Below are positions 1,827 to 49,413 of a stretch of 64,000 nucleotides of DNA, piece after piece. The position numbers and the translations under genes were made by a program. The notes beneath the pieces are model-generated. The model made no database searches and was not told the DNA's origin. It saw only the letters and a list, made by a program, of their open reading frames with translations. The first letter of the stretch is position 1. The number at the start of each line of letters is the position of its first letter. The stretch is from a virus (lineage: Duplodnaviria; Caudoviricetes), in IMG/VR virus record IMGVR_UViG_3300037400_003286. One strand, given 5' to 3'.

Positions 1827-2537
1827 TTATTTTTTATAAATTAAATCTCTGACTTGCTGTTTAGTATATGGTAAATCTCTTTTTTTACACCATTTTCTTA
1901 TACATGTTGATGAAACGCCATACATTCTTCCTATATCTTCAAAACTTTTTGTTTGTATTAACTTTAATAACTCATCCTTTGATGGCTGATTTTCTGGTTC
2001 AACTTTATATGTTGTTTTTCTATGTTTTTTGGCACAAGATACACATCTAATAGAACGATGTGATATTGGCTTTCCACAGTCAACACACAATTTTATATAT
2101 TTTGTTTTCTTGCTTCCAAAAGTTTCAGTTTGTGTGTGACAATTAGGACAAAGTATTCTTAAATTTTCTATTCTATTATCATTATGATCTCCATTTATAT
2201 GATCTAATTGTAACGTTAATGGTTTACCGTTCCATATTGGCCCTTGGTTGCATATTTCACAAACATCTTCTTTTAAACCTTCTTCAATTAAACGTTGTTT
2301 TAAAGCAGAAGATCTATATGGTCTATCTTTTTTTAATATTTCTGATAATTCTATTTTTTTACCAATTATATCTTTTTCTTTTATGAAAAAATATTGAATA
2401 CCATATTCATCAAGTTTATTTTTCAAAATTTTAACAGTTGTACCAGAAACAGATTTTCCCTGTTTCCTCAATATATCAGTTAAACTTGATGATTCATCAA
2501 CCAATCTCTGTAATTCTTCTTTTTCTGATATTAACAT
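1827..2537 (-). CDS. HNH homing endonuclease
   Basis: CEIC...LQLDHINGDHNDNRIENLRILCPNCH, then a Zn finger and a C-terminal HTH. Confidence 0.92.
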   Translation of the reverse strand: MLISEKEELQRLVDESSSLTDILRKQGKSVSGTTVKILKNKLDEYGIQYFFIKEKDIIGKKIELSEILKKDRPYRSSALKQRLIEEGLKEDVCEICNQGPIWNGKPLTLQLDHINGDHNDNRIENLRILCPNCHTQTETFGSKKTKYIKLCVDCGKPISHRSIRCVSCAKKHRKTTYKVEPENQPSKDELLKLIQTKSFEDIGRMYGVSSTCIRKWCKKRDLPYTKQQVRDLIYKK

Positions 2538-6686: not shown

Positions 6687-7925
6687 TTAATAATCTAAAT
6701 TATATAGATTTTTAAACTTTATTGGATTGAACAGCAATCCACTATTGATTATCTTATCTTTTACATAAGAATCACCAACTACTTTCCTCATTATGTTTAT
6801 CGCTCCATTGATATCTGCATTTATAACCTTTCCTGTATAACTTAAATATAAACCTCGTTTAACTCTTTTACCATTGTATTTTTCGTGAAATTCTATTGAT
6901 TCAAGAGATAACGAATCACATTTACTTGTATAGGATTCTTCATTTGTTATAACTATTATACCAACACATTCACATTTGTATTTCAGCATAGAAATCAATC
7001 TATCATAAGACACATTAACAAAATTCTGATTTGTAACCTTACCCAATTTGATGGAGTCTTTCCAACAATTGTTATAACCTATAATAAGATTACCTATTTT
7101 GTTTTGCATAAGATAATTTACTATGTGTCTGCTTACTTTGTGATAAACATCATCCAACTGATTATATCTTTTATTCCATAACTGATTTATTCTTTTTGAT
7201 TTTTTACATCCATTTTCTTTTTCTAATATTGATTTGTATTTTGATATAGTCTTGTTGAAATACTGGTTCTTTGATTTAATCTGTTTTCCAGAATATATAA
7301 CTGGATACTGATCCTCTGTAACAAGTGTAACAAGATTTGACAAGCCTAAATCTATACTTGCGAATTTCTTATAATCAACATAACATCTATATTCATCAAC
7401 TGTATATATAATTTCTATTTCTGTAAATCCATTCTTAGGATTAACTCTTATTTCGTTAAAATGATCTATACGTTCTTTGTATTCCTTATATTGTGGTATC
7501 TTAATATATAGATCTTTTGAAAAATATATTTTACTGTTCTTTATATAAGCACTTTGGTTTGTATATATGAGTTGATGATAACCATTCTTTCTCTTATACT
7601 GTGGTAATTTAGGGCAACCTTTAAATTTTTCTGGATGATTTTTATATTCTTTAATTGATTTAAAATATCCTTTTACATTCTTATCAAGAGCTTTAAGACA
7701 CTGCTGTGATACTTGAGCTTTCAGTTTCTTATAGTTTATTTCCCCATCCAGATTTACAAGATTATACATATATTTGTTCAAATCATAATATGAAACATAT
7801 TTGTTGTCTTTAAGCATTTGATTTACATAATATAATGCCTGGTTATACAAATCCTTTGAATATCTGCATAACTCAAACAACTTATCATTGTTTTCATAAT
7901 TATTGAACTTATACACTAATCTCAT
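6687..7925 (-). CDS. tnpB: TnpB RNA-guided endonuclease
   Basis: LYNQALY N-terminus, SIDLGL (RuvC-I), EESYTSK, NADINGAINI (RuvC-III). Confidence 0.92.
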   Translation of the reverse strand: MRLVYKFNNYENNDKLFELCRYSKDLYNQALYYVNQMLKDNKYVSYYDLNKYMYNLVNLDGEINYKKLKAQVSQQCLKALDKNVKGYFKSIKEYKNHPEKFKGCPKLPQYKRKNGYHQLIYTNQSAYIKNSKIYFSKDLYIKIPQYKEYKERIDHFNEIRVNPKNGFTEIEIIYTVDEYRCYVDYKKFASIDLGLSNLVTLVTEDQYPVIYSGKQIKSKNQYFNKTISKYKSILEKENGCKKSKRINQLWNKRYNQLDDVYHKVSRHIVNYLMQNKIGNLIIGYNNCWKDSIKLGKVTNQNFVNVSYDRLISMLKYKCECVGIIVITNEESYTSKCDSLSLESIEFHEKYNGKRVKRGLYLSYTGKVINADINGAINIMRKVVGDSYVKDKIINSGLLFNPIKFKNLYNLDY

Positions 7926-8514
7926 TTGTTAAGTCGTCCTCAAGTATCATCATTTTCTTTTTTCTTCTTGCAGAATACATTCTCGTAGAAAAACAATGTA
8001 TTAAAGAAATTATATCTGAAAATATTTCTTTCTCATCGTTTTCTGAATTTATCTGTCCGTTTACAACAATAAGTTCGCAGTTGAAGTTCTTAAACAAATC
8101 TCTCCACATATCAAACGATACACGAGTTAATCTATCTTTGTTTTCGATTATAACGGTCTTTATTTTTCTCTCTATTACAAGACTCAATATTTCATTGAAA
8201 GATTTTCTGTCATAATTCAATCCGCTTGCTATATCAGAATAAACCTTATCTACACCATATCCATTTTTATTTGCATATTCAGTTATCCTTTTGATTTGAT
8301 TTTCAAGATCTTTTTTCTGTTTTTGTGTAGATACCCTCGCATATATAACACATTTTCTATCCGTAGATATATGAGCGGCTGATAATACACTATCTTCATC
8401 ATAGTCATATTGACCATTTGGTAAAGGAGTATATTTTATCTTACCGTCTTTAACATATTTCGTCAAGGTTGGTCGAGTGATCTTTAATATTTTTAATACA
8501 TCTTTAGACTTCAT
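7909..8514 (-). CDS. tnpA: IS607 transposase (serine recombinase with N-terminal HTH)
   Basis: MerR-like HTH, IYARVST.KQK.DL, DIASG, DRLTR. Confidence 0.93.
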   Translation of the reverse strand: MKSKDVLKILKITRPTLTKYVKDGKIKYTPLPNGQYDYDEDSVLSAAHISTDRKCVIYARVSTQKQKKDLENQIKRITEYANKNGYGVDKVYSDIASGLNYDRKSFNEILSLVIERKIKTVIIENKDRLTRVSFDMWRDLFKNFNCELIVVNGQINSENDEKEIFSDIISLIHCFSTRMYSARRKKKMMILEDDLTNEISV

Positions 8515-10910: not shown

Positions 10911-10996
10911 CGGAGAGCGTAGGTGTCGATCCCAATACCTTTCACAGTACCAACAGTTTTCAAGACTGCGCTGTAGGCCGCTACAGTTCACTCTCC
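10911..10996 (-). tRNA. tRNA-Ser(TGA)
   Basis: GGAGAG acceptor, anticodon arm GCAGT-CTTGAAA-ACTGT, long variable arm. Confidence 0.85.
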
Positions 10997-10999
10997 AAG

Positions 11000-12013
11000 T
11001 TATTCAATATTGTGTCTTCTTCTATATCTTAATAATGCGTTTTTACCAACATTAAATCGTTTTGCTATTTCAACCCACGAGGAGCCACACTCTCTCATAG
11101 ATTTTAATACATCAATATCTATTTTATCTTCCGATTCACAGTGTATCATTGATTCATTTGGTTCTCTCCCAATTACCCATCCATTTGACAAATATTCATC
11201 AATGTCTTGCTTCTTTATTTTTTTATTTTTTCCATCCTTCTTTATCCAACAAGTACCAAACTGGGAATTCTTTTCTCCTTGTTGATCGTTATTTAATCGA
11301 TGAGTTTCACTCATTTTTTGTTTTGTTTCATCTTTATGTTTTCTTCCAACCCAAAAATAAACTAATTCTCCAGATACGTATCGTGGATCATCTTTCTTTA
11401 CCATGTACGCATTTCCGTTTTTATCTTTTACTAATACCATATCTTGTGACACATAAAATAAAATACCTTGTTTAATTCTCTCATCGTTAACATCAACTAA
11501 AAATCTATTTGAATTTGAATCTTTAACAACTGCTTTATTTTTTGTTACTCCGTAAACAACTCCAGATCTGACAAGATAATGATCCTTTGGTAAATGATAT
11601 ATGTTTCCCTCAACATCTCTATAATTACCATATCCAATCGTATGGCCAACATATTCACCGCTTTTTATTTTTGGATCGTCAACTGGAGCAAAGAACACAT
11701 TTCCATTTTTGTCTTTAACTGTTGCTAAACCATATGAATTGAAACCAAATCCACCACACATTAAGTTATAACAATTTTGGTCTCTAACTAAATCTTCTGT
11801 AACAATTTCAGATTCATAAGCAAAAGCATCTTCTTTTGTTTCAAAGAATTTTAATATTTCCTTTGTAAAGAACTCTACGCCGTATTTTTTATATGCACGG
11901 TGTAATCTTTTACCAGATCCCATATATCCGTCATTTAAATCATCTGTAGAATGAACTCCATAATAAAAATGTCCGTTTATGTTATTAGTTATCTTATAAA
12001 AATAATGGTACAT
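11000..12013 (-). CDS. GIY-YIG (Seg-like) homing endonuclease
   Basis: YFYKITNNING.FYYGVHST...YMGSG...YN, internal VKDKNGN repeats, NUMOD3-like H.DETK.KMS, C-terminal HTH. Confidence 0.88.
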   Translation of the reverse strand: MYHYFYKITNNINGHFYYGVHSTDDLNDGYMGSGKRLHRAYKKYGVEFFTKEILKFFETKEDAFAYESEIVTEDLVRDQNCYNLMCGGFGFNSYGLATVKDKNGNVFFAPVDDPKIKSGEYVGHTIGYGNYRDVEGNIYHLPKDHYLVRSGVVYGVTKNKAVVKDSNSNRFLVDVNDERIKQGILFYVSQDMVLVKDKNGNAYMVKKDDPRYVSGELVYFWVGRKHKDETKQKMSETHRLNNDQQGEKNSQFGTCWIKKDGKNKKIKKQDIDEYLSNGWVIGREPNESMIHCESEDKIDIDVLKSMRECGSSWVEIAKRFNVGKNALLRYRRRHNIE

Positions 12014-12085
12014 AAGTTCGAATTGTTTTTATATTTATTTCGAACCAATGAATCAAAAATTATATTTTTCAAAGAACGCTTTTTG

Positions 12086-12249
12086 TATAGGTGACTGGAC
12101 TCGAACCAGCGACGACTGCATCGCTCCGCTAGACAGACTCGAACTGTCTTTTATCCATATATGCATCTCGCACTAACGGAGTTTCATTTTTGTCTGTCTT
12201 TCGTTGACAGTAACCAAATGCAGCGATCTACCAACTGATCTACACCTAT
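12086..12249 (-). tRNA. tRNA-Pro(TGG) interrupted by a 91-nt insert (12123-12213)
   Basis: Removing the insert gives a 73-nt cloverleaf with anticodon arm CTGCA-TTTGGGA-TGCAG. Confidence 0.8.
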
Positions 12250-12256
12250 ATATAAT

Positions 12257-12319
12257 CAGCACACCTAACTTAACATAAACCCATAATTATTGTTAGTAAA
12301 ATTTGCTGTATTGTGTGCC
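12257..12319 (-). ncRNA. ACAGCAA RNA, copy E3
   Basis: GGCACAC-aat-ACAGCAAA...GTGTGCT-G. Confidence 0.75.
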
Positions 12320-12325
12320 ATAACT

Positions 12326-12386
12326 CAAGAGGCTGCTTGTCATGAATTAAAAGTTCATTGCTAAAAAAGTTTGCTGTATGCCTCTC
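12326..12386 (-). ncRNA. ACAGCAA RNA, copy E4
   Basis: GAGAGGC-at-ACAGCAAA...GCCTCTT-G. Confidence 0.75.
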
Positions 12387-12398
12387 ATCATATATCTT

Positions 12399-12475
12399 CA
12401 GAAGACGTTTAATTTTCACCACTTCACCTGAAACTAATTAACATGATTATGAAAATAGTTTGCTGTATGCCTTCC
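12399..12475 (-). ncRNA. ACAGCAA RNA, copy E5
   Basis: GGAAGGC-at-ACAGCAAA...GTCTTCT-G. Confidence 0.75.
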
Positions 12476-12638: not shown

Positions 12639-12686
12639 AACATTTCAAGTTTTAATACAACAGTTTCTCGTAACTGTCTGATTTTG

Positions 12687-12760
12687 TGGAGGATATCGGA
12701 TTCGAACCGATGGCCCCAACATTGCAAATGTTGTGCTCTAGCCAACTGAGCTAATCCCCC
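12687..12760 (-). tRNA. tRNA-Ala(TGC)
   Basis: Acceptor GGGGGAT/ATCCTCC with G3.U70, anticodon arm CAACA-TTTGCAA-TGTTG. Confidence 0.93.
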
Positions 12761-13637: not shown

Positions 13638-14492
13638 CTATTCTATTAATTCTTTTATCTTTTTGTATTTTCTATTTAAATATATATCATCTTTTTCATT
13701 ATATATGCGTTTCAAAAAATATATTATTTTTCCTATATTTGCTGATCTTATACAAGAACTTTTATATTTACCATTTGAAGATTGTTTGATTTTAAAATCT
13801 ATTCCATATTTTTGTTTTAAATAACTTATTATATAACCCCAATCTTGTTCATATCTTCCAGATAAAGAAAGTTGTACAACACGTTTTTTTGTTTTTGAAA
13901 CGTATATACATCCATCACCGTCAAATAATCCCCTTAAAAAATATTCTATATAACATTCTGGTACATAGTTAAATATTTTTTCATGCGACTCTATAGATTT
14001 TGGATATTTACCTAAAGATTTAAGACGTGTTATGTTCTTATTATCGTAATCAGTGTAATAAAAAGTTTTTTGTACTTGTCTTCCTTCTCTATTTCTAATG
14101 TATGTTTTAAAACTCGCAACTTTTAATAATATATGTTCTATATCATCAGCGTCACTTTTTGCTATTTCTAATATAAGATTTTTATTTCTGCTTATGTATC
14201 CATCTGACCAAAAATATCCCAAAAAATATGCAAGTTCTTTTGGATTATCAGTTAAATTGAAATCAATTGAAAGATATTTTGTATTATCATAAAAAATTAA
14301 ACTATCTATTTCATCATCTGTTGCTTTACATGCGTATTTACAATAACCAAGTTCTTCATAACATTTCGTTACAGCACCACTTATTGATCTATTTAGTTTT
14401 TCCGCACAAAGACGAATACCAAATTTATCAACGTTTTCTTTTAGAAATTGAATTTCCTCATCTGAATATTGTTTATTGATTTTATTGCTCAT
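13638..14492 (-). CDS. LAGLIDADG homing endonuclease
   Basis: LAYFLGYFWSDG and FLRGLFDGDG motifs, terminal LNRK. Confidence 0.92.
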   Translation of the reverse strand: MSNKINKQYSDEEIQFLKENVDKFGIRLCAEKLNRSISGAVTKCYEELGYCKYACKATDDEIDSLIFYDNTKYLSIDFNLTDNPKELAYFLGYFWSDGYISRNKNLILEIAKSDADDIEHILLKVASFKTYIRNREGRQVQKTFYYTDYDNKNITRLKSLGKYPKSIESHEKIFNYVPECYIEYFLRGLFDGDGCIYVSKTKKRVVQLSLSGRYEQDWGYIISYLKQKYGIDFKIKQSSNGKYKSSCIRSANIGKIIYFLKRIYNEKDDIYLNRKYKKIKELIE

Positions 14493-14508: not shown

Positions 14509-15135
14509 TTATGTATTTATCCACACACTCATATTTACATTTTTATTAATTTGAAAATCCATTTTCGATTTTAATTCATGCCATGAAATTGGTTTATAAT
14601 TATTAAAATCAACACCAACATCATATTGTGATGGAAAAGCAAAATCTATAATTCTTTTTATATCTTTATTATATTCTAAAATATTAATATTTTTTCGAAA
14701 GTGTGTATGTCCATGAATAGCGTATACATTATGTTGTTCCCTATATGCACCACCAAAGCACAGGAAAGGAAAATGGTTCAAGTATATTGATACGTCATCA
14801 ACTTGTATATACATTTGTTGTGTAACCATTTCAAAATACTTCGCATATCCTTCACGATAGTTTTTCATGTCGTGATTTCCCATGATCAGATAGTGTTTTC
14901 CTTTCAGTCTTGACAGTGCATCATTCCAGACTTGTGATCCTCCGATTGCAAAATCACCGAGATCAAACACTATTCCATCTTCATGTACGGTTTTATTCCA
15001 GTTGTCAATGAGCGTCTCGTTCATTTCCTCGATATTAGAGAATGGCCTGTGGCTATACTCTATGATGTTCTTATGACCTATGTGAAGATCTGATGTAAAA
15101 AACACCTTATCGGGGTTGAACTTGAATTCTTTCAT
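14509..15135 (-). CDS. Calcineurin-like metallophosphoesterase
   Basis: FTSDLH.GH, LGD, GNHD, H.P, HGHTH, DVGVD. Confidence 0.92.
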   Translation of the reverse strand: MKEFKFNPDKVFFTSDLHIGHKNIIEYSHRPFSNIEEMNETLIDNWNKTVHEDGIVFDLGDFAIGGSQVWNDALSRLKGKHYLIMGNHDMKNYREGYAKYFEMVTQQMYIQVDDVSIYLNHFPFLCFGGAYREQHNVYAIHGHTHFRKNINILEYNKDIKRIIDFAFPSQYDVGVDFNNYKPISWHELKSKMDFQINKNVNMSVWINT

Positions 15136-16645: not shown

Positions 16646-17491
16646 TTATATTGTTTGAGCATCTATTTTGATAGAATCTGCTTTTTCTTTTTTGCGATCT
16701 AAATAAACAGTAGCATTATCATACAAATAATTATAAAGATTTAAAAAATTATTATTTCCTCCAATTTTAATTTCCCAAACATCTTTATCTTTATATTTGT
16801 ATATATTAGCTGTTGTTAGACAAACATTTTTCAAATTATCAAGGATCCATGTTAAGAAATTTTTAGTCCCTAAGAAAGATATATTTCCATATGGCTTCCA
16901 ACTATCTTTCTTAGCTTTACATTGATAAACACTTCCATCACCATTATAATATCCACGAATAAAATGCGATAATAATTCATTTGGTATCTTATTCAAAGGT
17001 GGTGGCTGTAGTATTTTACTTTTATTGTAGAATACACCTTTATCTTGTAAACAATCAACAAACACCTTATTTCTTATACTTATAGCACACGCATTAACAA
17101 CACCATAAGGAGAATTGATGGTTTCTTTAATAATTTTATGATCGCTTTTAATCGCTTTTTTGAATTTTACAAGATGATCTAAATCTTTAATGTTAAGTTT
17201 AATACCAAAAACCTCATGATTGTTACACTTTGTAATATAACCATCAGCATAAATAAACCCTAACCAATAAGCTTTTTCTTCTGTATCTATTTTATCAAAG
17301 AAATATTCATCCACTGGTAATCTGTGTGATTCACTAAGATTTTTAATATGAATATTATTTTCTTTTAATATCCTTATTATTACGCTTCGATCTTTGCCAA
17401 ATCGCTTTGCTATATATAAAACGCTTTTTGTTTTATATAGTGTTAAAATTGTATTTAATTGAGACTCGTCTGGAATCCATTTCATATGCAT
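16646..17491 (-). CDS. LAGLIDADG homing endonuclease
   Basis: AYWLGFIYADG and HFIRGYYNGDG, terminal LDRK. Confidence 0.92.
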   Translation of the reverse strand: MHMKWIPDESQLNTILTLYKTKSVLYIAKRFGKDRSVIIRILKENNIHIKNLSESHRLPVDEYFFDKIDTEEKAYWLGFIYADGYITKCNNHEVFGIKLNIKDLDHLVKFKKAIKSDHKIIKETINSPYGVVNACAISIRNKVFVDCLQDKGVFYNKSKILQPPPLNKIPNELLSHFIRGYYNGDGSVYQCKAKKDSWKPYGNISFLGTKNFLTWILDNLKNVCLTTANIYKYKDKDVWEIKIGGNNNFLNLYNYLYDNATVYLDRKKEKADSIKIDAQTI

Positions 17492-17789: not shown

Positions 17790-19142
17790 TTATCCTACAG
17801 CTTTCTTGTATTCATCAAGAAGTTTGTTAAGGAACGCTGTTCCATCAAAACCAACCTCAAGGAACTTAAGAAGCATTGGAGAATATCCAGACAGATAGAT
17901 ATTACCATTCTGATCCATCTCAGGTATCGTGATGTTTCTCTCGTTAAGGTTCCACCACACAATCTTTGTTGTGTATCCATGTTCCTTCCAGAGTCTTTCA
18001 AGTTCTGACTTTGACTGGCTAGAACCAACATCAAACTCACAATCAGAAAGAACAACCAAATATTCAGGAAGATCTGTAAGATCCTTCAGAAGTTCCATAA
18101 CCTTGCCGAAGTCAGTGTTAGAGCAATCTCCAGTATACATAGACTGGATCTCACGCTCATACTGATTCTTACAGTTTGAGAGGTTCTGCTTACGGTTCTC
18201 TGTACGATAACCCCATCCGTCATTATACACGTTCTCTACACCAAGTGTAAGAAGAGAAGGACGAGAGCTAAAGGTGATAACCTTATTTGGTGCATATGTG
18301 CTGCACTTTGCGATGTAATGGCCAATAGCATAAGCCTTACCGATAGAATCGTTTCCGTTGCACATAGAACCAGATGTATCAACGATAGGAATTGCGTTGA
18401 TCTTGATCTTCTCAATCTTATCGAAGAAGAGAACAGGATCGATCTTGTCACGGTTACGATAGATGTCGTACACTGTGGTTGTAGCGATCTTGAGTTCCTT
18501 CTTTCCAGAACGAACATCCTCAAGATACTTCTCAAATCTTGCCTTTGTATCTTCCTTTGTTTTGAAGCGATTGAAGTACTTGATCATAGCAAGAGAAGGG
18601 ACCTGCTCGAACTTGATCTCACGAGTATTCTTACGAGAAAGCTTGTTTTCTGTTGTATTACACTTGATAAAGTGTCCATACTGCTGCTTATTCATGCCCC
18701 AGTACTTTGCAATCTGACGTGCAATCATTAGGTTCTTGGAACTGTAGCGAGGCATCCACTTCTTTACAAGTTCATTACCATTTTCAATTTCTCTCTTGAG
18801 ATAGTCAAGAATATCAGCATCAATGTAATAATCACGACGCTTTGAATCATAAACGAATAGATCATCAACACGACCAGACTTCACAATATCCTCGATAGAA
18901 CATCCAGCCATGTGCATCAGCACACGTCCAAGATCTCTACGTCCGAGACCGAATCTTGGATCACGTACAAAACGAGCAAACAACTGGTCTTTCTCAGTGC
19001 TACCGATTTGTACCTCTGACAAATGATTCTGATAATACTCTGTCAAAAACAACAGGTTTAACAGATTGTCATCATTAATCTTGGTGAAAGCGATATCACC
19101 GTTCTCAGTTCTCTTCTGATTGAAAATTTCTTCGAGCTTCAT
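17790..19142 (-). CDS. DUF2828-like protein: helical N-domain plus C-terminal vWA domain (Ro60/TROVE-like architecture)
   Basis: TENG, RDPRFGLGRR, GRVDDL, KWMPR, VPSLAM; MIDAS motif DTSGSM...NTDF...LSDCEFD; IVWWNL, SGYSP. Confidence 0.8.
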   Translation of the reverse strand: MKLEEIFNQKRTENGDIAFTKINDDNLLNLLFLTEYYQNHLSEVQIGSTEKDQLFARFVRDPRFGLGRRDLGRVLMHMAGCSIEDIVKSGRVDDLFVYDSKRRDYYIDADILDYLKREIENGNELVKKWMPRYSSKNLMIARQIAKYWGMNKQQYGHFIKCNTTENKLSRKNTREIKFEQVPSLAMIKYFNRFKTKEDTKARFEKYLEDVRSGKKELKIATTTVYDIYRNRDKIDPVLFFDKIEKIKINAIPIVDTSGSMCNGNDSIGKAYAIGHYIAKCSTYAPNKVITFSSRPSLLTLGVENVYNDGWGYRTENRKQNLSNCKNQYEREIQSMYTGDCSNTDFGKVMELLKDLTDLPEYLVVLSDCEFDVGSSQSKSELERLWKEHGYTTKIVWWNLNERNITIPEMDQNGNIYLSGYSPMLLKFLEVGFDGTAFLNKLLDEYKKAVG

Positions 19143-46908: not shown

Positions 46909-49413
46909 TTAAGCGGTCGTTGAACGGTTGAGTGTGATAGGAACAACGATCTTTTCCATATTTTGTGAAATCCAAACACCGATATCAACGATACAGAACT
47001 TATTGTCGATAACTTCCTTGTCGTTGTTGAGATCGTCGCACTCAATCTCATACTTAACAAGAGCACCAGAGTCTTTCATAGCACTCAGTATTGGATTGAT
47101 ACGAGTAATAATCTCCGCACGGGTTGTAGGTATATTGTATGTGAACACATATTCATCAAGTACAGCCTTACAGCTAATCTGAATTGTGTTGAGAAGTTCT
47201 CTTACATGCAAGAAACTCAAGTCAGAGTTAACAAGCTGGTGTGCTGTTCTGTCACCATAGATAAGGATGTTACCGTTTCTATTGATGATAGGATTGATAC
47301 CGAATGGTTCAAGATAACCTCTGTCTGTATCATCGAAATCATACTCAAGACCAACAATCTGGACATTGTTAATAATACCGTTCATGTTAGCAACAGTCTT
47401 ATAAGGATCACCGCCTGTAAACTTATTCATGAATGTATTAGATACATCTGCTGCTGGAGGAACGAGGATTGTTCTCTGTCCGTCTGCATACTTGAAGAAT
47501 GGAGCGAAGATACCAACATGGTCTGCGCCATTTTCAAAATCAGGAAGAGTAAATGACTTAGTGTCAACAGGATAAACAAGATCCTGATTACCACCCTGAG
47601 GAATGTATGCTACATCAAATGTAGGACGTGGATCGCCCATTGACTTATCCCAGTTATCACCGAAGAATGGAGCATCAGACTGAGCAAACTGAGTCATAGA
47701 AGGCGCATTGATAAGTGCTGTACAGTGCTTCTTGTCGAGAGCAAGGTTAGCAAGATGTACCTTACCAGCGCAATTCTCACCAAGACCATAAGCCATTGTA
47801 TCTACAAGATAACGGAAATCGATAGAGTCATTGTTAAGAAGTCCTCTGCGGATACCCTTATCGTTCAACATAGCATAGATCTTTTCAACACCAGCTTCAG
47901 GATCGATATTACCTTCCTTATCATATCCAGGCATATGTCTGTTGCAAATCTTCAATCCACTAAGAGCAAACAGAGTCAAAGTAGAATACATGCTCTTGTA
48001 TGACTTGTGGATCTCAACATTCATCTGTGCGCTGTCACCAAGAACAACATCAACAGCAGTGAAACGATAAATGATTTCACTTGTCTCATCATTCAGGTTA
48101 GTACGTGTACCACGTTTCTTGATGATACGTGTCATCAATCCGTTCTGAGCACGAACATAGTCGCCGATATTAACATTCAATCCATCAACCTCGCTCAATG
48201 TGAACTGTGTAGAAGAATCGATATTCTCATCATCAACAGTTTCATAAACCTTGATATACTCTGTAGGATTATCAATATTGTAAGACATGATAGTGAAAGG
48301 AACAGAAGCATCAGTTGTCAGCTTATGTCCAACCATATCAGGAATGAAGTTTGCAACAGTATCTCCAGTATCTCCAGCATCCTCATTATAAATGCCATCA
48401 CCTACCTCATCATAGAAGAATGTAGAGCCATCAAGAGCAATAAGGTCAAGTGCCTTTTGATTGATACCGAACATAAGTCCAGTCTCGTTGCACTTCTTAT
48501 TAACAAGATAGTCAATAGACCTCATGTTTCCTTGCTTGTCTGTGAAGTTAGGAAGGATACATCCTGTCCAAGAACCAATCACATTAACAGCATCAAGACG
48601 CAAGAACTTAGCAAGCTTATCCTTGAGAAGACCTTCCTCAGAGAAGTATCCAGACCATACAACATCGCTAGCAAACGAAGCGTACTTAGACTTGTCCCAG
48701 TTACCAGCAATTGCGATAACATCAACAAAGTAGTCAGATACGTAATCATTTGGATTGATCCACTTGTAAGGAATATCATCCTGATTTCCGTAATAATCAA
48801 GGAATGTTACGTTATATCCGTTAACTGATTCTGATTTTCTTACAATAACAGAAATGTCTCTTGTTCCGCAGTTAGAAACACCGAACAAAGCGGCTTTCTC
48901 AATGGTATCAACATCAACAGAGGCATCAACACCATTCAACATTTCCTCAGAACCATTTATAAATGAATTTTCTACGAATGCATCATCATCGGCGATCCAG
49001 AAACGAGTTCTGTCATACATATAAGCATAAGGTGCTTTGGTTGTATGTGATTCGATCTTAGGATCAAGAGATAACAGTGTATATCCAACAGTATCCTTAT
49101 TGCTTTCCTTGTCACTGGTATCAACATTGAGCATGTTCATCACGTACACAGGTGATTTCTGCAACATTGTACGGATGTTTCTATTTGTCCAGCATCCCCT
49201 GCGTTCCATCTTTCTGTCGATTGGACCAAACAGCTTATTACACTCGTCTGAGTTAGCAATATAAACAGGACGGTTGAAAGGTCCCTGCATATTAAAACCA
49301 ACTGCCATACGAAGTGCTGTCTGCACATTGGATGACGAAATTATAGAATTATCAATCTCAATGAAATAAACACCAGAAGCAGGATAGTCTGAAAAATTAA
49401 TTTTTTGTGACAT
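46909..49413 (-). CDS. Contractile tail sheath protein (gp18-like)
   Basis: SGVYFIEID, GPFNRP, VPPA, INPI, YGDRT, LHVRELL, FTYN...TR, CDDLNN..EVID. Confidence 0.93.
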   Translation of the reverse strand: MSQKINFSDYPASGVYFIEIDNSIISSSNVQTALRMAVGFNMQGPFNRPVYIANSDECNKLFGPIDRKMERRGCWTNRNIRTMLQKSPVYVMNMLNVDTSDKESNKDTVGYTLLSLDPKIESHTTKAPYAYMYDRTRFWIADDDAFVENSFINGSEEMLNGVDASVDVDTIEKAALFGVSNCGTRDISVIVRKSESVNGYNVTFLDYYGNQDDIPYKWINPNDYVSDYFVDVIAIAGNWDKSKYASFASDVVWSGYFSEEGLLKDKLAKFLRLDAVNVIGSWTGCILPNFTDKQGNMRSIDYLVNKKCNETGLMFGINQKALDLIALDGSTFFYDEVGDGIYNEDAGDTGDTVANFIPDMVGHKLTTDASVPFTIMSYNIDNPTEYIKVYETVDDENIDSSTQFTLSEVDGLNVNIGDYVRAQNGLMTRIIKKRGTRTNLNDETSEIIYRFTAVDVVLGDSAQMNVEIHKSYKSMYSTLTLFALSGLKICNRHMPGYDKEGNIDPEAGVEKIYAMLNDKGIRRGLLNNDSIDFRYLVDTMAYGLGENCAGKVHLANLALDKKHCTALINAPSMTQFAQSDAPFFGDNWDKSMGDPRPTFDVAYIPQGGNQDLVYPVDTKSFTLPDFENGADHVGIFAPFFKYADGQRTILVPPAADVSNTFMNKFTGGDPYKTVANMNGIINNVQIVGLEYDFDDTDRGYLEPFGINPIINRNGNILIYGDRTAHQLVNSDLSFLHVRELLNTIQISCKAVLDEYVFTYNIPTTRAEIITRINPILSAMKDSGALVKYEIECDDLNNDKEVIDNKFCIVDIGVWISQNMEKIVVPITLNRSTTA

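Follow-up and report, generated by a model that had tools for sequence, protein, structure and literature searches.

The interrupted tRNA-Pro gene

A 64-kb stretch of viral DNA (IMG/VR record IMGVR_UViG_3300037400_003286, Caudoviricetes; the window hereafter means this whole stretch of 64,000 nt) contains a tRNA-Pro(UGG) gene that is interrupted, directly after its anticodon, by a 91-nt insert in the shape of a small tRNA. The phage is a giant gut phage and a distant relative of the Lak megaphages, since its tail sheath (46909-49413) finds its best matches among Prevotella phage Lak genomes at 41-43% identity. An earlier reading made from the letters of the DNA (the sequence-only reading) had described the gene, the 91-nt insert and the 73-nt tRNA-Pro left by its removal, and all three were confirmed base for base by Rfam and by ARAGORN on the joined exons. 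That the gene lies on the minus strand is a point absent from that reading. The Rfam tRNA model RF00005 covers 12249..12086 (-) end to end (47.3 bits, E 4.8e-9), leaving about 95 unmatched positions within the anticodon loop. ARAGORN missed the gene in its default mode, and called a 73-nt tRNA-Pro(tgg) once the 91 nt were removed. In order, the 5′ exon comprises the acceptor strand AUAGGUG, the D arm GAUC-AGUUGGUA-GAUC, the anticodon stem CUGCA and the loop UU-UGG; the 3′ exon continues with GA-UGCAG, the variable loop, the T arm GCUGG-UUCGAGU-CCAGU and then CACCUAU-A (Table 1).

The borders of the insert follow from an intron-less tRNA-Pro(UGG) in the IMG/VR contig L008. This contig, together with L009, L010 and L011, was found with a 27-nt pattern from the D/anticodon arm. 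The D and anticodon arms of L008 are identical to those of the interrupted gene and its junction reads CUGCA-UUUGG/GA-UGCAG (the slash marks the splice junction), therefore the insert sits between G36 and G37. This is the TTTGG/GATGCAG junction that the sequence-only reading had predicted, here matched at a related phage locus. Moreover, the 164-nt gene recurs unchanged in L009, L010 and L011, three independent metagenome contigs whose neighbouring cassettes differ in part, which excludes an assembly chimera, the artefact that the earlier reading had named as fatal to its case. When IMG/VR was searched by exact pattern for the tRNA-Pro intron, or for the same tRNA body without an intron, it returned nothing or chance matches in coding DNA.

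In its intron mode ARAGORN proposes tRNA-Ala(tgc) with an intron at 35/36, a shift of one base. We rejected this call because the acceptor stem carries A3:U70, as opposed to the G3:U70 of alanine tRNAs; because a regular tRNA-Ala(UGC) with G3:U70 is present at 12686-12760; because the L008 homologue reads UGG-G37; and because UUUGGG with G37 is found in 6/7 intron-less tRNA-Pro genes (from L008, related megaphage contigs and Lak genomes).

Within the insert, the hairpin, acceptor-like stem and T arm reported earlier all lie where they had been placed, and a single base separates the inner module from the 3′ exon. Positions 12181..12174 pair with 12131..12124 to form the acceptor-like stem CUCCGUU(A)/(U)AGCGGAG. 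A minimum-free-energy fold of the whole 164 nt keeps both the outer cloverleaf and the inner helices. Folded alone, the insert has a z score of -3.08, with 0/200 shuffles folding as well, and a stack of 5+8 bp ending one base before the splice site arose in 1/20000 shuffles. The 91 nt hold no open reading frame, and an Rfam search at E up to 10 returns the outer tRNA only. The insert has the structural features expected of a tRNA-like module for RNase P and RNase Z, namely a stack longer than 11 bp (here 13 bp), a UUCGAGU loop, GG in the connector and a single C. The 5′ hairpin and the T stem are built from strands of identical sequence, CUGUC/GACAG, so that alternative pairings are possible. 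This identity is absent in the other members of the family described below and could be chance or a conformational switch.

Table 1. The tRNA-Pro gene, its intron (parts listed 5′ to 3′) and neighbouring genes in the window.
Feature	Position	Strand	Basis or remark
tRNA-Pro(UGG) gene with intron, 164 nt	12086..12249	(-)	RF00005; joined exons called tRNA-Pro(tgg) by ARAGORN
5′ exon, tRNA positions 1-36, ends in anticodon UGG	12214..12249	(-)	27-nt D/anticodon arm identical to intron-less L008
91-nt intron, Lak-type, tRNA-shaped	12123..12213	(-)	L008 junction; family descriptor finds exactly these ends
Lead UUA	12211..12213	(-)	family consensus N/W-U-A
5′ hairpin H1, CUGUC-AACGAAA-GACAG	12194..12210	(-)	hairpin here in 15/15 members, stem sequences differ
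A-rich linker ACAAAAAUGAAA	12182..12193	(-)	
Acceptor-like 5′ strand CUCCGUUA	12174..12181	(-)	pairs with 12124-12131
Connector with small hairpin GUGC-GAGAU-GCAU	12149..12173	(-)	D-loop-like GG at 12155-12156
T arm GACAG-UUCGAGU-CUGUC	12132..12148	(-)	
Acceptor-like 3′ strand UAGCGGAG	12124..12131	(-)	completes the 13-bp stack
Single unpaired C, discriminator-like, last intron base	12123	(-)	invariant in 15/15 members
3′ exon, tRNA positions 37-73, begins with G37	12086..12122	(-)	sequence
HNH homing endonuclease genes	3-560 and 1827-2537		tRNA cluster of the window
TnpB (OrfB_IS605 and Cas12f-like TNB) and serine resolvase, IS607-like pair	6687-8514	(-)	inside the tRNA region
SegB-like GIY-YIG homing endonuclease gene	11000-12013	(-)	72 nt downstream of tRNA-Pro; outside the RNA
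LAGLIDADG homing endonuclease genes	13638-14492 and 16646-17491		tRNA cluster of the window
Calcineurin-like metallophosphoesterase gene	14509-15135	(-)	inside the tRNA cluster
DUF2828/vWA (TROVE-like) gene	17790-19142		near the small RNAs upstream of tRNA-Pro

A family of tRNA-shaped introns

The sequence-only reading had inferred an unusual splicing route; introns of this kind have been described before. Devoto et al. (2019, Nat Microbiol, PMC6784885, Fig. 4) reported "enigmatic", highly conserved introns in the tRNAs of Lak phages and noted that the intron of tRNA-Thr "itself may encode a tRNA". Their Table S6 lists four intron sequences with "no hit in rfam"; intron presence varied between strains, and the intron sequences were identical across cohorts. 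A survey of 262 recoded jumbo phages published in 2026 (PMC13037316) only repeats that tRNA introns "could encode another tRNA", and we found no mechanism for them in the later literature. The tRNA-Pro intron is a member of the published, mechanistically unexplained Lak-type introns. New are its host tRNA, tRNA-Pro, and its divergent lineage; what we add is the architecture that these introns have in common.

Fifteen members were compared: the four of Table S6, which we located in Lak-A1 and Lak-A2, ten further ones and the tRNA-Pro intron. Two of the ten are in Lak-B1 and eight in three IMG/VR megaphage contigs, of which L027 and L033 were reached via a neighbouring vWA/TROVE-like protein and L036 via a DNA pattern scan derived from the family. 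Together they interrupt eight types of tRNA (Pro, Asn, Phe, Thr, Gly, Ala, Met and Lys). The comparison used a scripted structural parse, as MAFFT alignments misplaced the 5′ strands of several members by 1-2 columns.

Every member begins with a three-base lead W-U-A (15/15), in which U+2 and A+3 are invariant. There follow a hairpin of 3-6 bp (15/15), mostly with C first and with an A-rich loop of 6-9 nt in 14/15 (the exception being Asn_L033), and an A/U-rich linker of 8-17 nt (15/15). At the other end, a C stands directly before the 3′ exon in 15/15 members. Where a T loop is present (14/14), exactly 13 paired positions come after it, divided into a T stem of 5-6 and an acceptor-like stem of 7-8, and then the single C. 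This stack is perfect in 12/14; the exceptions are Ala_L027, with a single G·A mismatch, and Met_L033, which leaves one base unpaired and whose loop has 8 nt. The smallest member, at 65 nt, consists of a 3-4 bp hairpin and a minihelix with almost nothing more.

The stack is both rare by chance and conserved in shape. A 5+8 stack arose in 1-8/20000 shuffles per member, 12/13 stack pair positions show several Watson-Crick or wobble pair types, and RNAalifold reports compensatory changes in 4/5 T-stem pairs. Moreover, the connector, of 7-79 nt, contains GG in 14/14 T-loop-bearing members, often as its sole G residues. The joint chance of this is about 2e-6, a value that overstates independence as some members are related. 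In tRNA, a GG facing a UUCRANU loop is the elbow between the D loop and the T loop. The inner module, having both, is therefore a real tRNA-elbow mimic. The tRNA-like module of the sequence-only reading thus proved to be a conserved one, with its 13-bp T/acceptor stack, T loop and GG covarying or recurring across the 14 T-loop-bearing relatives.

Applied to the window, a family descriptor finds exactly 12123-12213, plus two ordinary tRNAs with a chance upstream hairpin, against 0.02 matches expected per shuffled window. Family patterns gave no matches in 185,579 bacterial and archaeal species genomes, a narrow negative that covers the Asn type and the ACAG-AGUAAA-CUGU type only.

Insertion sites, mobility and the surrounding tRNA cluster

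All inserts lie at 35/36 or 36/37 of the anticodon loop and none elsewhere. Comparison with intron-less alleles puts those of Pro and Thr at 36/37, and those of Phe, Ala, Met and Lys must lie there as well if the loop is to have 7 nt and a purine at 37. The joined exons are perfect cloverleaves in all 15 members. One published assignment is affected: the intron listed by Devoto et al. under tRNA-Tyr(GTA) looks like an intron of tRNA-Asn(GUU) at 35/36 when the Lak-A1 locus (L001:11984-12148) is set beside two Lak-B1 loci (L007:13707-13922 and L007:8321-8392). Its exons match the intron-less Lak-B1 tRNA-Asn(GUU) in the D arm, T arm, G73 and short variable loop, the joined exons of the B1 copy equal the intron-less anticodon arm UCUGA-CUGUUAA-UCAGA, and both phages also have a regular long-arm tRNA-Tyr.

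The constant feature of the sites is thus formed by the intron's own ends, WUA at the 5′ side and C at the 3′ side, whilst the position in the tRNA is not fixed. The varying bases on the exon side argue against a sequence-specific DNA target and against the pairing rules of group I introns. The element itself moves between anticodon loops. A near-identical Asn intron is found in two unrelated tRNA-Asn bodies (GGGAAUA... in Lak-A1 and GCUUCGA... in Lak-B1), and the hairpin ACAG-AGUAAA-CUGU is common to tRNA-Phe and tRNA-Asn introns of different phages. The Lak-B1 orthologue of the A1 tRNA-Asn body is intron-less. Perfect exons, together with an intron in differing tRNA bodies, are typical of a tolerated, mobile intron. 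A hairpin-ended element of the IS200/IS605 type, considered because a TnpB gene lies nearby, was rejected: each tRNA has other bases 5′ of the insert, which leaves no fixed target, and the conserved features are those of tRNA mimicry at the RNA level.

The tRNA cluster of the window is large, with 13 tRNA genes interspersed with five homing-endonuclease genes. The strain contigs L010 and L011 are otherwise 97-99% identical, yet homing-endonuclease genes are present or absent within their tRNA clusters. L011 has another cassette in place of the GIY-YIG one and L010 lacks both LAGLIDADG genes, with the intron constant across strains. As L011 has the identical intron without the GIY-YIG gene, the two are separable, and a homing role of that gene in trans is possible.

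Such surroundings invite the view that the intron is a selfish insertion that is never removed, in which case tRNA-Pro would be dead or a mere carrier and the tRNA shape would serve spread or stability. The coming and going of homing-endonuclease genes in the cluster, the same Asn intron in two tRNA bodies, and the strain-variable presence of introns that are identical across cohorts (Devoto et al., 2019) all agree with it. It has to contend with the perfect cloverleaves formed by the exons of all 15 members, where decay would be expected of dead genes, and with inserts that always occupy the anticodon loop at 35/36 or 36/37. Moreover, the Lak-A1 tRNA-Thr(UGU) copy in the tables of Devoto et al. 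is the interrupted one. We consider permanent retention unlikely.

Several further features of the neighbourhood concern RNA. Directly upstream of tRNA-Pro are stem-closed small RNAs with an ACAGCAA motif (12257-12318, 12326-12390 and 12399-12470, minus strand). In Rfam, one of them scores weakly against Dictyostelium class I RNA (23 bits), and a relative at L022:11753-11825 is barely above the threshold of that family (41.8 vs 41.5). Their vicinity to the TROVE-like gene suggests a Ro/Y-RNA-like system. In the related megaphage L030, a PF09414 RNA ligase gene (L030:526-1248) lies directly upstream of a vWA/TROVE-like gene (L030:1674-2990), a pair that recalls bacterial Ro-Y RNA-ligase operons. 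Beside tRNA-Ser(gct), an Rfam tRNA-Sec match at threshold (47.5 vs 47 bits; 10911-10997, minus strand) has no ARAGORN call and may be a long-arm or suppressor tRNA. The calcineurin-like phosphoesterase in the tRNA cluster is a possible link to RNA repair; bacterial Pnkp RNA end-healing enzymes use a calcineurin-like phosphoesterase fold.

The window thus also offers some material for a different function, in which the RNA would stay unspliced as a tRNA look-alike with two elbows. Such a decoy or scaffold could, for instance, be directed at host anticodon nucleases or serve a phage protein that binds tRNA. The sequence-only reading had raised the decoy as its own alternative. The elbow is intact in the outer module as well as in the inner one, and the window holds other expanded tRNA look-alikes besides the TROVE/vWA-like gene with its stem-closed small RNAs. 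However, the same type of insert occurs in 8 tRNA species that share only the anticodon loop, orthologous intron-less alleles exist, and the exact placement, by which a 7-nt loop with purine 37 is restored, would be needless in a decoy. We regard this as a very improbable role for the element.

Proposed intron removal and comparison with known systems

To our knowledge, tRNA introns are removed in two established ways only, by group I ribozymes in bacteria and organelles or by EndA and a ligase in archaea and eukaryotes. Lak-type introns fit neither. A group I intron was rejected at tRNA-Pro because RF00028 gave no match at the gathering score or at E up to 10, the insert is 91 nt long, the 5′ exon ends in G36 rather than U and the intron ends in C rather than G. 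Inspection of the fold speaks against a bulge-helix-bulge intron, as the 13-bp stack takes up the 3′ end of the intron and UUUGG has no adjacent complement. The EndA family (PF01974) is absent from Lak-A1 and Lak-B1 and was found, among the controls, only in archaea. Known self-cleaving ribozymes (hammerhead, twister, pistol, hatchet and others) gave no match at E up to 10 across 11900-12450. ARAGORN "introns" of 232-811 nt in related loci were likewise taken as unsupported, having no group I match and no spanning Rfam tRNA.

A new class of self-cleaving or self-splicing RNA would be another way out, with the hairpin, A-rich linker and 13-bp helix forming a catalytic three-way junction that joins the splice sites. 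Both sites do emerge at one junction of the predicted fold, both carry invariant bases (U+2, A+3 and the terminal C), and A-rich single strands could dock in helix grooves. On the other hand, besides the absence of any known ribozyme or group I match, the smallest member leaves little more than a short hairpin and a minihelix, the conserved features are those of tRNA mimicry and not of a catalytic core, and the exon bases flanking the sites vary. Autocatalysis of this kind seems to us a very improbable explanation.

We favour, tentatively and at not quite an even chance, a protein-dependent intron, that is, a small mobile insert without an open reading frame that is removed by proteins rather than by self-splicing. 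Its cleavage and ligation steps are inferred from anatomy and gene content. A host tRNA 3′-end enzyme of the RNase Z type would bind the elbow and stack and cut after the terminal C, leaving a 5′-phosphate on G37. A second endonuclease would cut at the 5′ site, three bases before the hairpin, leaving a 3′-OH on G36; it may be a host enzyme of the RNase E/G type reading U+2, or a phage enzyme reading the hairpin. The tRNA halves, held by the tRNA stems, would be sealed by a phage ATP-dependent RNA ligase, and the excised mini-tRNA may be further trimmed by RNase P.

For the 3′ site, the elbow and the fixed ruler of 13 bp plus one base point to an elbow-docking enzyme that cuts after the first unpaired base. 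Where acceptor and T stem together exceed 11 bp, tRNase Z cuts only after the first unpaired base or discriminator, and micro-pre-tRNAs without the other arms are good substrates (PMC9141469). The ordinary tRNAs of the phage need such an enzyme in any case. Across 137 tRNA genes (from the window, the Lak loci and the related loci L019-L036) none encodes CCA. In 130/137 C74 precedes (A/U)A and in 110/137 a U stands at -1, flanks that are strongly conserved in the phage group; without an encoded CCA these tRNAs already depend on RNase Z-like 3′ processing. Lak-A1 and Lak-B1 contain no RNase Z, so that a host enzyme would act; a Bacteroides control genome was positive for RNase Z, RNase E/G and RtcB.

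The sequence-only reading had suggested that RNase P and RNase Z might cut out the inner module. This suits its 3′ end, which is at an RNase Z-type position. It fails on the other side: if RNase P cut where the mini-tRNA begins, the lead, hairpin and linker, 32 nt in all, would stay attached to the 5′ exon. Halves fit for ligation thus cannot come from RNase P and RNase Z alone, and some other nuclease is required for the 5′ splice site. That site is marked by the invariant U+2 and A+3 and by the hairpin three bases downstream. U+2 is the dominant signature of RNase E (PMC5222698), which its invariance in 15/15 members fits, making an RNase E/G-type cut a candidate only.

The sealing step also differs from the earlier suggestion of RtcB. 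RNase Z and RNase E leave 5′-phosphate and 3′-OH ends, which suit ATP-dependent ligases, unlike RtcB. The same ends would come from RNase P and RNase Z, and no RtcB, EndA, RNase Z or RNase E/G was found in Lak-A1 or Lak-B1. These two genomes have 4-7 PF09414 RNA-ligase matches, and L030, a relative of the window phage, has one PF09414 ligase.

Other protein chemistry could do the same work. A metal-independent endonuclease might cut both sites and leave 2′,3′-cyclic phosphate and 5′-OH ends, to be joined by host RtcB or, after healing by a phosphoesterase/kinase, by an ATP-dependent ligase. The RtcB of the Bacteroides control genome and the calcineurin-like phosphoesterase gene in the tRNA cluster would supply such a route, and a nuclease could recognise the WUA lead, the hairpin and the C, of which the first and the last are invariant. 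However, the Lak genomes lack an EndA-type endonuclease and RtcB, no bulge-helix-bulge can be drawn, and the conserved full tRNA elbow and exact 13-bp ruler would be left unexplained. We think this variant improbable.

Several observations weigh against the protein-dependent scheme that we favour, with its RNase Z-type and RNase E/G-type cuts. The tRNase Z rules above come from the mammalian enzyme (PMC9141469). Asn_L033 is a plain 13-bp hairpin with a GUGA cap, without a T arm and with the tail AC. The stack has 13 bp, whereas the canonical number is 12. RNase P and RNase Z leave the 5′ splice site unexplained, and the RNase E/G idea draws on two or three invariant bases. No RNA ligase gene is present in the 64-kb window. 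Lastly, the stack is mostly preceded by A or C, as against a U at -1 in 110/137 ordinary tRNAs, thus the module is not an optimal substrate of RNase P.

A bolder form of the scheme is a new bacterial or viral splicing pathway, in which a mini-tRNA in the anticodon loop recruits tRNA end-processing enzymes and a phage ATP-dependent ligase reseals the halves. RNase Z would act at the 3′ site; the 5′ side would fall to RNase P, to an RNase E/G-type cut that the WUA-hairpin guides, or to both. We hold this to be possible but rather doubtful. Ligase chemistry on nicked tRNAs might also explain how the element is inserted into new anticodon loops. For introns whose mechanism has been unexplained since their description in 2019, the comparison of 15 members yields a testable design, with an elbow mini-tRNA, a 13-bp ruler and one base to the 3′ splice site, and an invariant WUA-hairpin signal as its counterpart at the 5′ splice site. 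If the proposed route were true, it would be a third mechanism of tRNA splicing, and the many RNA ligase genes that huge phages carry would have a part in tRNA production. It would also correct tRNA annotation in these phages, as intron offsets alter the inferred anticodon (Tyr to Asn).

Among known systems, group I introns occupy the anticodon loops of bacterial tRNAs such as cyanobacterial tRNA-Leu UAA and Azoarcus tRNA-Ile. They resemble the tRNA-Pro intron in lying at or next to the anticodon of a bacterial-type tRNA, in being mobile and in their variable presence; they differ in length (at least 200 nt, against 91 nt), in their terminal bases and in matching RF00028. In archaeal and eukaryal bulge-helix-bulge introns, EndA cuts and RtcB or Trl1 seals. 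Protein-dependent removal from the anticodon loop followed by ligation is what our model for tRNA-Pro shares with them, whereas their site is 37/38 and that of the tRNA-Pro intron is 36/37.

RNase P and RNase Z cut tRNA-like modules in MALAT1, which yields mascRNA, and in the t-elements of plant mitochondria. Like these, and like the micro-pre-tRNAs of tRNase Z (PMC9141469), the tRNA-Pro intron embeds an acceptor/T-arm stack with an elbow, and the flanking RNA ends one unpaired base after the stack. In mascRNA and t-elements, however, the cuts make RNA ends and the flanks are not rejoined, whereas the flanks at tRNA-Pro are tRNA halves needing ligation; its stack, moreover, has 13 bp.

The Lak introns of Devoto et al. 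agree with the tRNA-Pro intron in being anticodon-loop inserts of ~65-140 nt with no open reading frame and no Rfam family, and in holding a tRNA-like fold. Neither that paper nor the 2026 survey gave a common architecture or a mechanism. The tRNA-Pro intron differs in its new host tRNA and distant lineage and has no primary-sequence match to the Lak introns, but the layout of the Lak Thr, Phe, Gly and "Tyr" introns is the same as in tRNA-Pro: the lead WUA, the hairpin, the A-rich linker, the 13-bp stack and the C.

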